37,662 nt of DNA from a virus (Duplodnaviria; Caudoviricetes). The DNA is taken from the IMG/VR virus record IMGVR_UViG_3300048861_000272, positions 1 to 37,662 of that record, one strand, 5' to 3'. Position numbers and translations under genes: made by a program. Below the pieces are notes generated by a model. It did no database searches and was not told the DNA's origin. It worked only from the letters and a program-made list of their open reading frames with translations. The stretch's first letter is position 1. Each line of letters starts with the position of its first letter. Of this stretch, positions 29,946-34,768 are shown piece after piece.

Positions 29946-32501
29946 GTGAGCGCAATCGACACACTCAGGGACGCGCTTTTCGGCTCCCCGCCCGATCCGA
30001 ATATGGAGCCCTCGCGAGAGGGACTGTTGGCGGCGTTCGCGGAGCTTGCTGGCGACGTGCAAGGCGTGCTCACTGGCGCCACCCCCTACGCAACCGCTTC
30101 CGCCCTCCCCGCCTCGACCGGTAGCAACAAGATCTACCTCGTCACCAGCGATCCGACCGTCGCTAATAATGGGTACTGGCAGGATCAGTCCGGCGGCAAC
30201 ACGATCCTGACGGCGCTGAATGCGGCTTTTAAGGGCACCCCTGGCACGATGGCCGGCGCGACGAAAACCGACATGCTTGCCGGCACGTCATCGGTGCTGG
30301 CTGTCACGCCCTCGTCCCTGTCCGCCGCCAGCCTATTCCAGAACGTCTGGCCCGACCCGTTCGGCGAGCAGCTTCCGCTCCGACCGATGCTCGGGAACCG
30401 CGTCAACGCGGCCTATGGCGGCACTGCCATCGCGGTAGATGCGGCAAGTCCCTGGGGAAAGGGCAGCGTCACGGCGACGGGCTCCAACGTCGCTCAGCGG
30501 ATCGTCACGATCGGCGACTTGAACGCCAAGGCCGGCGACATTCTCTCACTACGCGTCTCGGCGAACTTCAGCAGCACTGGCGGCTCGGTTTCGGCGTTCT
30601 TCCGCGATGCGTCGGGAGCAAGCCTGTCGCCGGGGCCGATTTCCGTCACCGGGCTCGCCTCGGGCTTGCTGGACGTGCCACTACCTTCGACCGTCATTCC
30701 CGCGAACACGGCGACGATCGAACTGCGCGCCACCCTCTCGGGCGGCACGAAGATTATCTTCGCCGTCGCGGCTGCAATCGGCGCGTATCAACCGGCCTTC
30801 ATCGCCGCTGCCAAGCCCGGCTCGCTCACGAATGTCGTCCAAACGCAGAAGAACCTATGGGAAGACCCGTTTCTTCGTCGCTACGTGGCCGGTGCCCGGT
30901 TCCGCTCTGGTGGCTGGGGCTTTTCCGAGTTGGCCGGCGTATCTATCCCGGCCATCGTCACTACGAATTCGACAAGCCCGTTTCCGACCAAGAACGTCAT
31001 TCGCCTGCCCACTGGCGCGGCTGCGGTAAATATCAACTTCGATCTGCGCACGATCGGGCTGAAGGCCGGGGACAAGGTCACTGTCGCCGCGATGGTCTAC
31101 TCGGCTCAGGCGGTCCCGCTCGATATCATCATGCGCGACGGCAGCAACGCGGTCATCGGCACGACGATGCGGCAGACGACGACGTTCATCGCGGCTGGCT
31201 GGCAGCAGATCACGATGACTTACACCATCACACAAACGATGGTGGACACTGGCGTCTACGGGCAGTTGCGCTGGTTCGCCACGGGTTCGGTTGGCGCCAC
31301 GCCGGTCGATATCACCGGCCTGTCGCTATTCGTCAACGACACGCAGCCGCTCATCTACGACGATTGCTACCTTGACGACATGGCCGCGATCGAGCGGCAC
31401 CGTGCGCCGGGCTTCGGCTACAACCGGATGCGCGAGACGCACAAGCGGATCATGGCGCTCAAGATGGGCGCGGCTGCGGTTCTGACGACGCAGCTGTCCA
31501 TCGCACTGATCGGCGACAGCTATACGCATTTGCCGCAGCGGGCCTCCGGTCCATACGTGGCCTATATGCAGGGCGCCTATGGCGATGCTGGCTATGGCTT
31601 CGTCGGTTTCGGCAACCCGGATGCCGGACAAGGCAACATCAACGGGACCAACTGGAAGGGGCTGACGGTCACGACGGTCGGCACTTGGACGACATCCTAC
31701 GCCACTGGCTACGGTCCCGACGCCTGCCAAGTCACGGCCTCTGGCGCGGCCAACATCTACAAGGTCAACAATATCGTCGCCGGCAATGGTCTGACGATCA
31801 ACATCCTCGCGCAGCCAGTCGCCAGCACCAGCTACGATTGGTCGATCGACGGCGGCACGACGTGGACGACCGTGGACGCTTCGACCGGCACGAACATCAA
31901 CAACACGACGCTGACAGGCCTGCCGACGACCGGCGCCTTCGCAGTCTGGATCAGGCCGAATGCCGGCTCGCCGGTTCTCTACGGTCTCGACTTGCGCAAC
32001 ACTGCCAAGGGCGTGCGCATCAACAAGCTCGGCGCGACAGGCTCGTCGGCAGCGCAGTGGGCGGCTCGCGTCGTAGATCCCAAGTGGCAGGCTTCTATCG
32101 CTGCGCTCAATCCCGATCAGGTCCGCATCATGCTCGGGCCGAACGACCAGACCAGCAGCACGCTACCCAATGTCTTTGCCGGCTATATCCAGACCATTGT
32201 AACCGCGGTGCAAACCGCCTGCCCGCGCGCCGACATCCTGATCATGGTGCCGGAGGAAAATCAGCGCACATCCAACCTTGTCGAGATGGCGGCATATGCA
32301 GCGGCGGTTCGCGCGGTGGCGATCACCAGCGGCACAGCCTTTCGCCATCTCCAACAGGACTATGGCGCCCAGGCAGCGGACTACTCCTCGACCAGCACCC
32401 GCCCTTGGCACGCGAGCGACAACATCCACCCCGACCCGGCGAACGATGGCGGATTCCCGATCGTGAATGCCGAGCGAGACATCGCGGAGCGCACAGCATG
32501 A
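29946..32501 (+). CDS. Receptor-binding tail fibre/spike with two carbohydrate-binding-like modules and a C-terminal SGNH/GDSL esterase
   Basis: Repeated NVWPDPF / NLWEDPF domain starts; SGNH blocks IGDSYT, LGATG, LGPND and DNIHP. Confidence 0.85.
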   Translation: MSAIDTLRDALFGSPPDPNMEPSREGLLAAFAELAGDVQGVLTGATPYATASALPASTGSNKIYLVTSDPTVANNGYWQDQSGGNTILTALNAAFKGTPGTMAGATKTDMLAGTSSVLAVTPSSLSAASLFQNVWPDPFGEQLPLRPMLGNRVNAAYGGTAIAVDAASPWGKGSVTATGSNVAQRIVTIGDLNAKAGDILSLRVSANFSSTGGSVSAFFRDASGASLSPGPISVTGLASGLLDVPLPSTVIPANTATIELRATLSGGTKIIFAVAAAIGAYQPAFIAAAKPGSLTNVVQTQKNLWEDPFLRRYVAGARFRSGGWGFSELAGVSIPAIVTTNSTSPFPTKNVIRLPTGAAAVNINFDLRTIGLKAGDKVTVAAMVYSAQAVPLDIIMRDGSNAVIGTTMRQTTTFIAAGWQQITMTYTITQTMVDTGVYGQLRWFATGSVGATPVDITGLSLFVNDTQPLIYDDCYLDDMAAIERHRAPGFGYNRMRETHKRIMALKMGAAAVLTTQLSIALIGDSYTHLPQRASGPYVAYMQGAYGDAGYGFVGFGNPDAGQGNINGTNWKGLTVTTVGTWTTSYATGYGPDACQVTASGAANIYKVNNIVAGNGLTINILAQPVASTSYDWSIDGGTTWTTVDASTGTNINNTTLTGLPTTGAFAVWIRPNAGSPVLYGLDLRNTAKGVRINKLGATGSSAAQWAARVVDPKWQASIAALNPDQVRIMLGPNDQTSSTLPNVFAGYIQTIVTAVQTACPRADILIMVPEENQRTSNLVEMAAYAAAVRAVAITSGTAFRHLQQDYGAQAADYSSTSTRPWHASDNIHPDPANDGGFPIVNAERDIAERTA

Positions 32502-32800
32502 GCAAGCAGCCACAGGCTGACGATCAGGTCGCCTATAAGTCGAGCATCACCGGCGTTGACGATGGGATATACCGCGTCGCTTTGGTGAAGGCCCAACCAC
32601 CTGTCGCGCTCACGGCGGAGATGGAAGAAGCCGGCCACGCGATCGAGGATCATCCTGACTACGGGTGGGTCGATCCCTCAGTCGGCGTCTACCTGATGCT
32701 GATCAGCAGCCACGGCGACCACTTCATACACGGGCCGGTGCCCGAGAGCGGGACAGCCATCGCCAATGCTACCGGCGGAAGCTGGTCGTGGCCCGCATGA
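32498..32800 (+). CDS. Hypothetical protein, 100 aa
   Basis: ATGA coupling to the fibre gene; MSKQPQADD...GGSWSWPA. Confidence 0.7.
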   Translation: MSKQPQADDQVAYKSSITGVDDGIYRVALVKAQPPVALTAEMEEAGHAIEDHPDYGWVDPSVGVYLMLISSHGDHFIHGPVPESGTAIANATGGSWSWPA

Positions 32801-32836
32801 CCCCGCACCGGGCGGACCCCCGGCAGGAGAATGAAG

Positions 32837-32926
32837 ATGGCAACGCAGCCTCCGGTGCCCGTACCGCCCGAGCCGGATTCGGGTGGTACGCCGATCAAGC
32901 CCCCGCCCAAGCCGCCGGGGACCTGA
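32837..32926 (+). CDS. Pro-rich micropeptide A, 29 aa (MATQPPVPVPPEPDSGGTPIKPPPKPPGT)
   Basis: AGGAG SD at 32825-32829, 7 nt before the ATG; shares PDSGGTPI with the next ORF. Not in the ORF track. Confidence 0.72.
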   Translation: MATQPPVPVPPEPDSGGTPIKPPPKPPGT

Positions 32927-32927
32927 C

Positions 32928-33038
32928 ATGTCCGTGATCATCGCCTTCCTGCTCGGCATCGCCGCACCTGATCCGGGTCCGCATCCGGACAGTGGCGGTA
33001 CGCCGATCTCGCAGCCCGTCCCGCCTGTGAGCGGCTGA
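32928..33038 (+). CDS. Pro-rich micropeptide B, 36 aa (MSVIIAFLLGIAAPDPGPHPDSGGTPISQPVPPVSG)
   Basis: Starts 1 nt after the peptide A stop; TGATG overlap with the downstream gene; hydrophobic leader plus PDSGGTPI core. Confidence 0.72.
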   Translation: MSVIIAFLLGIAAPDPGPHPDSGGTPISQPVPPVSG

Positions 33039-33481
33039 TGGACTTCGGCGACATCCTCCTGGTCTCGGTATTCGGTGCGATGGCTTTCGCCTCGCTGGCG
33101 TTTGCGTTGCGCTCGACCAGCCGTGATCGGGAGGATTGCGTCAAGCTGGCCTTGGTCCTGATCATCGCGTGGTCGTTCAGCAACATCGGCTGGCTCTTCA
33201 TGAACCCGCTACGGGTCAATTCAGCGGTGGACGTGCTGACGCTCGGCTTCTGCCTGTTCAATTTTCGCGCCCTGAGCGGCTGGCGCGCCGGTTTCGTGCT
33301 GGTCGTCGTCCTGCAAGTCGGGATCGATATCTACCGTGAGCTTGCGCCCACGGACTTCACCTTCTGGGCCTTGGTATTGAACGCCACCTTCGGCTTGCAG
33401 ACCGTCATCGTGGCGTTGGGGGCTAGCAATGGTTGGTATCGTCTGTCTCGCGTGCCTGGCGGTCGTCGTGATCCGGTGTGA
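33038..33481 (+). CDS. Integral membrane protein, about 5 TM helices
   Basis: Five hydrophobic stretches with intramembrane polar residues (WSFSN, VDV, LQVGID, LNATFGLQ). Confidence 0.8.
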   Translation: MDFGDILLVSVFGAMAFASLAFALRSTSRDREDCVKLALVLIIAWSFSNIGWLFMNPLRVNSAVDVLTLGFCLFNFRALSGWRAGFVLVVVLQVGIDIYRELAPTDFTFWALVLNATFGLQTVIVALGASNGWYRLSRVPGGRRDPV

Positions 33482-34002
33482 GCAGTGGAGGCGCGGACGC
33501 CGTGGATGATCTGGCCGGCATCTTCGGCAAGATCACGTGGGGTTCTGTCCCGACGTGGATTCAGGTTTGCATCCTGCTGCTCATTCTGTGGAAGGGTGTG
33601 CCGGCGTTTCTCGACGCCATCTCCAACCGTCAGAGCAAGGTCGAAGAGCGGATGGAGGCGCGTCTCAAGGATTCGGACGAACGCTATCTCAAGCAGATCG
33701 AGGCGGCCGACAGGCGCCACGAGGATTGCATGAAGGCGAACGAGACCCTTTCCGAGCGGATCGACGCGCTGGAGGAGCGGGACGCGAAGAAGTCCAAGAT
33801 CATCGCCGAGAATGGCGACCTGCTCGTCGTGGCGCAGCAGACGATCGTGAAGCAGTCGGAGGAGATAGCCGGCCTCAAGCGCCAGATCGTCCAGATGCAG
33901 GTCTCTACGCTGCGCGTCGCGCCTCACACAGCGGCAGACGGCGTGATGGACCACATGCTGACCCAGCTTGATCAGGTCGCCAGCAAGAGGGCTTCGTCGT
34001 GA
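33478..34002 (+). CDS. Single-TM coiled-coil protein (holin- or spanin-like candidate)
   Basis: WIQVCILLLILWKG TM followed by a long coiled coil; directly before the endolysin. Confidence 0.65.
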   Translation: MSSGGADAVDDLAGIFGKITWGSVPTWIQVCILLLILWKGVPAFLDAISNRQSKVEERMEARLKDSDERYLKQIEAADRRHEDCMKANETLSERIDALEERDAKKSKIIAENGDLLVVAQQTIVKQSEEIAGLKRQIVQMQVSTLRVAPHTAADGVMDHMLTQLDQVASKRASS

Positions 34003-34442
34003 CCCAGCCATCCTCCGAAATCGTCAAAGCCGCCCGCGCTGCACAGGCCAAGTACAAGGTGCCAGCCTCGATAAGCCTTGCGCAATGGGCGCTGGAGTCG
34101 GGCTGGGGCAATCACATGCCGGCCGGCTCGAACAACCCGTTCGGTATCAAGGCCCTCCCCGGTCAGCCTCATGTCACCGTACCGACGCGCGAGGTGGACA
34201 AGTACGGACGCTCGATCACGATCAACGCCGGGTTCCGCAAGTTCGAGAGCGTAGCGGAGGCGTTCGACCTCCATGCCCGGCTGCTCGCAACCGCGCCGAT
34301 CTACCAGCCGGCGCGCGATGCCCTGCCCGATCCCTTCGCTTTCGCGGACGAGCTGACCGGGCGCTACGCCACCGATCCGCACTACGGGAGCCTGCTCGGC
34401 TCGATCATGCGCGGGTCCAATCTGACGAGGTATGACGCATGA
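33999..34442 (+). CDS. Endolysin, GH73 glucosaminidase (FlgJ-like)
   Basis: LAQWALESGWG, NNPFGIKA, FRKF and YATDPHY motifs. Confidence 0.92.
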   Translation: MTQPSSEIVKAARAAQAKYKVPASISLAQWALESGWGNHMPAGSNNPFGIKALPGQPHVTVPTREVDKYGRSITINAGFRKFESVAEAFDLHARLLATAPIYQPARDALPDPFAFADELTGRYATDPHYGSLLGSIMRGSNLTRYDA

Positions 34443-34768
34443 CCGACAACCCCGATCGCTTCCAGTTCTATGCGTTCATCGCGACGCTGGTCGCCCTGGC
34501 CTTCGTGTTCGATAGCGCCTTGGTCGCAGCGTCGATCAACGGCGGCATCATGGGCAAGCTGGAGGTGTTCGGCCTCGGCACCATCACGGGCGGCCTGATC
34601 GGCGTCTTGAAGGCTCCCACGCGCTCGACCGGCGCCAGCGATGCCACGGTAAGCGCGGCGCTGAACAAGTTGCCCGACGCGCCACCCGTGCCGGCAATCA
34701 CCCCCGTCGTCATCCAGCAACCCGCAGACCAGCCGGTGCCTGTCGCGCCGGCCAATGAAGGAGCCTGA
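34439..34768 (+). CDS. Two-TM membrane protein, putative holin
   Basis: Two hydrophobic segments then a Pro-rich tail; coupled to the endolysin gene. Confidence 0.6.
   Translation: MTDNPDRFQFYAFIATLVALAFVFDSALVAASINGGIMGKLEVFGLGTITGGLIGVLKAPTRSTGASDATVSAALNKLPDAPPVPAITPVVIQQPADQPVPVAPANEGA

Follow-up and report, generated by a model that had tools for sequence, protein, structure and literature searches.

Two small open reading frames (ORFs A and B) encoding peptides with an identical core lie directly before the gene for a five-helix membrane protein (5-TM) at the head of the lysis genes in the window, the whole 37,662-base virus record analysed here, and such a pair of peptide precursor and 5-TM gene recurs in other phages and in bacterial chromosomes. 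The precursors are under coding selection, share a motif and are paired with 5-TM genes, whose window member is modelled with five helices, in neighbourhoods that include lysis cassettes; the pair is a conserved two-gene module without a named family, and stays one even if the signalling role considered for it should fail. In that role, A and B would be precursors of a conserved peptide that, once matured to begin with SGG, binds the 5-TM protein from outside and through a single-pass partner sets lysis timing, a reading to which we give about an even chance.

The tail genes of the window end at 32501 (phrog_38670) and are followed by a 100-aa ORF, A, B, the 147-aa 5-TM, a 174-aa single-TM protein, the endolysin and two further small genes. 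The features concerned are as follows.

32808..32823, + strand: possible 5-bp hairpin just 5' of the Shine-Dalgarno (SD) sequence of ORF A, weak, recognised by eye
32825..32829, + strand: SD sequence AGGAG of ORF A, 7 nt before the ATG at 32837 (sequence)
32837..32926, + strand: ORF A, leaderless Pro-rich peptide precursor of 29 aa (sequence)
32873-32896, + strand: core PDSGGTPI of ORF A (sequence)
32928..33038, + strand: ORF B, 36-aa precursor with a hydrophobic leader (sequence, hydropathy)
32985-33008, + strand: core PDSGGTPI of ORF B (sequence)
33038..33481, + strand: 5-TM protein, 147 aa, likely peptide sensor judging from the five-helix model and its family
33478..34002, + strand: single-TM coiled-coil protein, 174 aa, candidate 5-TM partner or holin component by position and coupling
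33999..34442, + strand: endolysin of the glucosaminidase family (PF01832, E 6e-27; phrog_3513 endolysin, E 5e-40)
34439..34768, + strand: membrane protein, 109 aa, holin candidate by position only, no family match

The 5-TM, single-TM, endolysin and next membrane gene overlap by 4 nt at each junction. The single-TM gene matched no holin family in PHROGs, and the 109-aa membrane protein matched nothing in Pfam or PHROGs; genes visibly similar to the single-TM gene follow the 5-TM gene in two other loci (L089 and L092). The closest endolysins come from Allosphingosinicella, Caulobacter and Sphingomonas assemblies, so that the host is likely alphaproteobacterial. The sequence of A, B and 5-TM is identical in a contig of a second study, and the stretch is present in two soil metagenomes, with no RNA sample among its listed holders. 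A 90.9-kb contig likewise carries the 5-TM protein, so the phage may also occur integrated. Two other parts of the window were noted in passing: the 100-aa ORF between the tail gene and ORF A (32498-32800) has no family match, and positions 1-260 hold a 27-nt tandem repeat that encodes a nine-residue Gly/His/Ala/Thr repeat in a minus-strand ORF (1-663) cut by the window end.

A preliminary description of this DNA had proposed two tandem small ORFs with an identical core, a well-spaced SD and no leader in A, a hydrophobic leader in B, a B stop codon overlapping the 5-TM start, and coupling of 5-TM to the single-TM and endolysin genes, all of which we recovered on re-reading the sequence. ORF B starts 1 nt past the ORF A stop, and its TGA overlaps the 5-TM ATG; its leader lacks a basic n-region. 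Of the 24 nt of the core, 5 are changed between A and B, each of them synonymously, including Ser TCG/AGT. In 3000 order-2 Markov shuffles of the 240-nt gap, a repeat of at least eight identical amino acids turned up twice, and among 240-nt windows of the + strand (n = 312, a grid in which no single window held both cores) only two exceeded an amino acid repeat of 6, both over the unrelated 27-nt tandem repeat with which the window begins. Codon adaptation of ORF A (0.67) and ORF B (0.72) was at the level of the neighbouring genes, against 0.51-0.60 in their other frames; an alternative frame at 32797-32937 was rejected as coding on codon use (0.58). In three pairs of precursors, synonymous changes also outnumbered non-synonymous ones (34/17, 25/10 and 6/3), and the proposal that selection acts on the peptide is upheld by this excess together with the synonymous-only divergence of the cores and the gene-like codon use. 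The tails of A and B differ after residue 8 of the putative mature peptide, which we count against the signalling reading.

That A and B are a functionless chance local duplication is hardly credible given these data. Such a view could draw on the fact that both ORFs are known from sequence alone and that a DNA pattern for the exact 8-aa core returned four viral loci, all chance matches (0/4 true relatives), but it is largely refuted by the family evidence, namely a family-wide motif and reciprocal retrieval, in addition to the synonymous-only divergence.

The start of ORF A is preceded by an in-frame ATG-AAG (Met-Lys-Met) 1 nt from the SD, and the product would be 31 aa if the ATG at 32831 were used; the Met-Lys-Met arrangement resembles the dual start of lambda S, but that short distance of the first ATG from the SD speaks against the parallel. 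An 18-nt ribosome-binding string with the Met-Lys-Met start and a short hairpin before it occurs in the window (32797-32840) and in L080:1260-1305, where the stem has a compensated pair (by eye, in two sequences only, with differing MFE folds). The string also precedes an unrelated gene in L082 and was therefore not counted as evidence.

The window 5-TM protein had no real match in Pfam, PHROGs, NCBIfam or PADLOC and no clear match in the PDB, and single-sequence searches returned only the protein itself. A full phmmer scan yielded 12 proteins, 10 of them genuine 5-TM homologues at 29-44% identity; one candidate, P0002, was dropped as a repeat artefact. A metagenome scan for the closest homologue, P0003, gave no match, and the locus counts below leave out the neighbourhoods of 14 metagenomic homologues (P0003-P0016). 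In two genome samples of the family around Sphingomonas vulcanisoli, 5-TM profiles built from these matched 1/401 and 6/401; they also matched 12/301 genomes in the Caulobacter family and 1/401 across the class, as well as phages phiCbK and CcrSC. Searching from the endolysin was abandoned as a route to relatives, the 5 viral and 50 genomic loci so obtained holding no 5-TM homologue. The 22 distinct loci found via 5-TM alone were split by inspection, post hoc, into 13 close (L060-L069, L071, L080, L083) and 9 distant ones (L070, L072, L073, L075-L079, L081).

An ORF with a strict [ST]GG motif in its last 30 aa, ending within 12 nt of the 5-TM start, was present in 10 of these 22 loci, and a relaxed motif in 13. 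The same [ST]GG occurs in 34 of 807 background C-termini (4.2%; p = 7e-9 against 10/22, for loci that are not independent and include three close pairs). All 13 close loci have a motif-tailed ORF ending -4 to +10 nt from the 5-TM start, strict in 10 and of SAG or SDPGG type in 3, the relaxed pattern having been defined after these three were seen; the suspicion that homologous 5-TM genes lack upstream peptides is thereby dispelled. The cores read PDSGG (L062, L064), PQSGG (L061, L080), PMSGG (L063) and PFSGG (L068, L071), usually followed by Lys and Pro, and the 9 distant loci lack the strict motif. Stronger than this count from the 5-TM side is the reverse test, in which a DNA pattern for the peptide alone retrieved 6 viral loci, two with a 5-TM gene directly downstream (E 8e-38 and 6e-19), and 19 metagenomic loci, again two with a 5-TM gene, one of them the contig of a viral match and the other kin of L061. 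The preliminary description had named as checks both recurring upstream ORFs with the core and covariation of peptide and receptor; the first is borne out, and the second amounts to a weak correlation of similarities (Mantel r 0.20-0.22, p 0.04-0.05), with shared descent and the way in which three of the loci were obtained as confounders.

The window has side by side two precursor forms that are found singly elsewhere: the precursor of L089 is a 30-aa leaderless peptide like ORF A, and those of L092, L061 and L099 have hydrophobic leaders like ORF B, in three lineages (leader hydropathy 3.0 in ORF B vs 2.8 in L092 and L061). The C-terminal 17 aa of ORF A agree with the L092 tail at 14 positions. 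Most other precursors are 60-105 aa long, with a helical N-terminal part and no clear export signal.

Gene context was read in 16 close loci, the 13 above plus L089, L092 and L099, with the window excluded. Seven of them show the order peptide, 5-TM, coupled small gene, endolysin (two endolysins identified by PHROGs, five by eye), and in 4 of these 7 the coupled gene encodes a TM helix according to a hydropathy scan. The other nine lie outside lysis cassettes: phiCbK, CcrSC, one locus before a virion gene and six chromosomal pairs without a coupled gene. The link to lysis put forward in the preliminary description accordingly holds for 7 of 16 close relatives and is not obligatory; since pairs occur outside lysis cassettes and some lack a coupled gene, precursor and 5-TM together make up the minimal unit, and the lysis cassette is its commonest, not its only, home. 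No tie of the unit to lysogeny or to a repressor region was seen. The gene after 5-TM varies between phages, with its TM helix near the N-terminus in some and the C-terminus in others, and none is a recognised holin, so that no fixed partner is evident. In the cultured lytic phages phiCbK (gp288/gp289, L060:3188-3959) and CcrSC (gp411/gp412, L083:2198-2926) the pair is far from the lysis genes; those of phiCbK are genes 104-107 according to PMC3556154, the main text of which mentions neither gp288 nor gp289.

These neighbourhoods bear on the idea that peptide and 5-TM form an antiholin or holin-activator pair timing lysis within the same cell, with no message between cells. The tight translational coupling to lysis genes in the window and seven relatives would fit it, and small membrane antiholins that tune lysis are known, such as ORF52 of Salmonella phage BSPM4, described as a 64-aa single-TM protein that binds holin and delays lysis (PMC11657625). 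We nevertheless judge it distinctly unlikely, as it leaves unexplained the pairs outside lysis cassettes, the hydrophobic leaders and the homologues linked to LuxR-type genes. The latter belong to the 9 distant loci, which are related to the close family by profile (HH probability 96.8, the selection being partly circular); in 6 of the 9, all chromosomal, the 5-TM homologue is preceded, in the same orientation, by a gene for a GerE/LuxR helix-turn-helix protein that has a TM helix at its C-terminus. In five loci this gene is followed by an ORF of 120-140 aa, helical, with a tail of Gly/Pro type and no strict motif. The LuxR-TM genes suggest an ancestral signal unit in which 5-TM acted on a single-pass partner, and serve as a template for 5-TM output through such a partner. 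As an observation in its own right, the sphingomonad and caulobacter-relative operon of L075-L079 and L081 (tethered GerE/LuxR regulator, helical ORF and 5-TM homologue, none with a family name) is a candidate bacterial peptide-signalling system. Another distant locus, L070, is a tandem array of several 5-TM paralogues with no peptide ORFs between them.

The AlphaFold2 model of the window 5-TM protein consists of five helices (pLDDT 90). Across 24 5-TM sequences, Lys plus Arg came to 2.1, 2.3 and 4.5 in loops 1 and 3 and the C-terminal tail, and to 0, 0.5 and 0.7 in the N-terminus and loops 2 and 4, a charge bias from which an N-out/C-in topology is predicted. Two residues, Asp65 and Trp82, never vary; position 97 holds His in 13 sequences and Asp in the other 11, and position 115 is Asn or Asp in all 24. 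Residues N49, D65, Q93, H/D97 and N/D115 are predicted in the outer half of the membrane, a placement deduced from the helix bounds. Foldseek against the PDB gave a best E of 0.37, and VIA a best Z of 10.4, to generic helical bundles. A viral structure library returned many uncharacterised phage proteins of 135-180 aa (top, an uncultured phage protein, TM 0.73; phiCbK, TM 0.69), and the ESM Atlas (score about 0.9) clusters of 727, 79 and 90 members that are largely viral and have no Pfam family. The ESM Atlas also held unnamed Bacteroidota membrane proteins of 237-258 aa (TM 0.63-0.66 over 132 residues) as possible larger relatives; longer fused forms of 5-TM were absent among 7998 candidates, a weak test.

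From these features the 5-TM protein could be either a sensor or, in an AgrB-like role, a processing or export protein that cleaves or transports the cytoplasmic precursor, the released peptide then acting on some other target in the host or in other cells. A processor or exporter would suit the single invariant Asp, the many precursors without an export signal, and the fact that precursor and 5-TM stand by themselves, with no partner, in six loci on chromosomes and in two lytic phages. We consider this role unlikely, because no catalytic set of Cys, His, Ser or Glu is conserved in the 24 sequences (Ser48 is present in 15), no AgrB or protease family was matched, the outer half is where the polar residues are predicted, and three lineages of precursor bring their own hydrophobic leader. 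Of the preliminary proposal of a peptide with a membrane receptor, processor or exporter, the conserved unit with 5-TM stands, and a receptor is favoured on the grounds of the predicted outward polar pocket and the LuxR-linked homologues.

A possible wider family came from gammaproteobacterial phages. phrog_15451 resembles the window 5-TM (Foldseek probability 0.96, TM 0.53, E 0.31; profile-profile E 0.04-0.06) and has the same gene layout and an Asp in TM3. The Foldseek match in Edwardsiella phage PEi21, taken as gp50 by protein length, is flanked by a 41-aa ORF, in which a repeat containing DAGG occurs three times, and by a gene that is holin-like by weak PHROG matches, divergent from the endolysin, and has relatives in 89 phage records. 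Nine of ten loci read have a short upstream ORF with AGG or GGG, the motif being repeated in four, with 2-3 copies in some, and following the initial Met directly in two candidate starts; the frame is ambiguous in PhiPLPE. Vibrio phage CP-T1 has a gamma-type 5-TM and no upstream peptide ORF. In Jedunavirus, PEi21, PEAT2, VP16C, PhiPLPE and others (L084:27644-28484, L085-L088, L114-L118), the mostly unannotated, basic AGG/GGG-repeat peptides precede 5-TM-like and holin-like genes, often divergent from the endolysin. We regard kinship of this family with that of the window as a lead; if true, it would support a mature peptide starting at S/A-G-G.

In the signalling reading we favour, the precursor would be cut before SGG to release a short peptide. 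We infer this cut site, as well as the exit route, binding, partner and lysis effect: S-G-G is the sole constant part of the precursors, some putative gamma counterparts begin Met-AGG or Met-GGG, and the preceding residues (V/I-x-P-x) resemble serine-protease substrates. B would get to the outer side of the inner membrane by export through its leader, and leaderless A by lysis of neighbours; the peptide would then bind the predicted outward polar pocket of 5-TM, which would act on the adjacent single-pass membrane protein and shift lysis timing. Two copies might provide a higher dose, or two messages, one from infected and one from burst neighbours. Counted against this reading are the 9 of 16 close relatives outside lysis cassettes, the many precursors without a clear export signal, the lack of a fixed partner gene, the weak Mantel correlation, the distant loci without strict motif and the array without peptide ORFs.

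Small peptide plus small membrane protein is also the layout of microcin-immunity pairs, and the unit is carried by mobile elements and as chromosomal orphans, as would be expected if the peptide harmed or marked competing cells or phages and 5-TM protected the carrier. Such a toxin-immunity or exclusion role is nonetheless quite improbable. PADLOC models of known anti-phage defence or exclusion systems matched none of nine proteins, the cores are short and non-amphipathic, rich in Pro and Gly, and an exporter gene is missing from the vicinity; signalling, moreover, accords better with the association with late lysis genes and with a tethered regulator. A broader form of the signalling proposal, which we find possible while leaning against it, would have SGG/AGG-start peptides widespread in Gram-negative bacteria and their phages, with a stand-alone 5-TM receptor working through any single-pass protein paired with it, which on chromosomes would be the tethered LuxR regulator and in phages a protein of lysis. 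In this way, phages that infect Alpha- and Gammaproteobacteria would count nearby infections or bursts and set their lysis time by them.

No description of the peptide plus 5-TM unit was found in the literature, subscription journals and supplements being outside the scope of the search, and the available text of review PMC13389391 contains none of the terms 'Gram-negative', 'holin' and 'membrane receptor'. The unit departs from known systems in their tested defining features, those of arbitrium/RRNPP, Agr and T4 lysis inhibition, and may still work like them. Among phages, those of Bacillus are established users of dedicated peptide signals, which cytoplasmic receptors read: in arbitrium (AimP-AimR-AimX) and other RRNPP systems a small propeptide gene adjoins a receptor gene and the peptide signals density. 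The small phage precursor gene beside a presumed receptor gene, and the presumed density signal, are alike here, whereas the arbitrium/RRNPP receptor of Bacillota phages is a cytoplasmic TPR protein and ours a five-helix membrane protein, with no TPR match, of phages with Gram-negative hosts; arbitrium, moreover, switches lysogeny, and the window unit sits in late lysis genes. Agr (AgrBDCA) and Com precursors join a helical or hydrophobic N-terminal part to a short core, for which the reader is a membrane protein of the multi-pass type. The precursors here share that build and have a multi-pass membrane partner, here a putative sensor, but the window unit, with its stand-alone 147-aa 5-TM, lacks a histidine kinase domain, a response regulator, AgrB and the thiolactone Cys: no AgrB-family peptidase match and no conserved Cys/His pair were found in the 24 5-TM sequences, and no histidine kinase or response regulator in the window or among the genes after 5-TM in 19 loci.

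In T4 lysis inhibition, which PMC13389391 names, RI antiholin and T holin delay lysis on an outside cue sensed at the inner membrane. Such a cue read at the inner membrane is known for T4 and predicted for the window unit. T4 is not known to encode a dedicated peptide precursor, and its RI is a SAR protein of the periplasm; no homology was found, and no RI-like antiholin or T-like holin matched the window cassette in PHROGs or Pfam. BSPM4 ORF52 is likewise a small phage membrane protein acting on lysis, and differs, as described in that report, in having a single TM helix and no peptide partner; no link between it and the 5-TM family was seen. PHROGs 13051 and 13785, both unannotated, are those to which phiCbK gp288 and gp289 belong: gp289 matches the family profile (E 5e-18) and the fold (TM 0.69), and gp288 has a Pro-rich tail containing TGG but is an 86-aa helical precursor, single-copy and outside the lysis cassette. 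Because this Caulobacter model phage carries the pair, the signalling reading is directly testable. If it holds, phage signalling would gain a new kind, in which a peptide sensed at the membrane of Gram-negative hosts sets lysis timing through a new receptor fold. Several hundred phage membrane proteins in the ESM Atlas that lack annotation, and the unannotated short ORFs before them, would then have a function.
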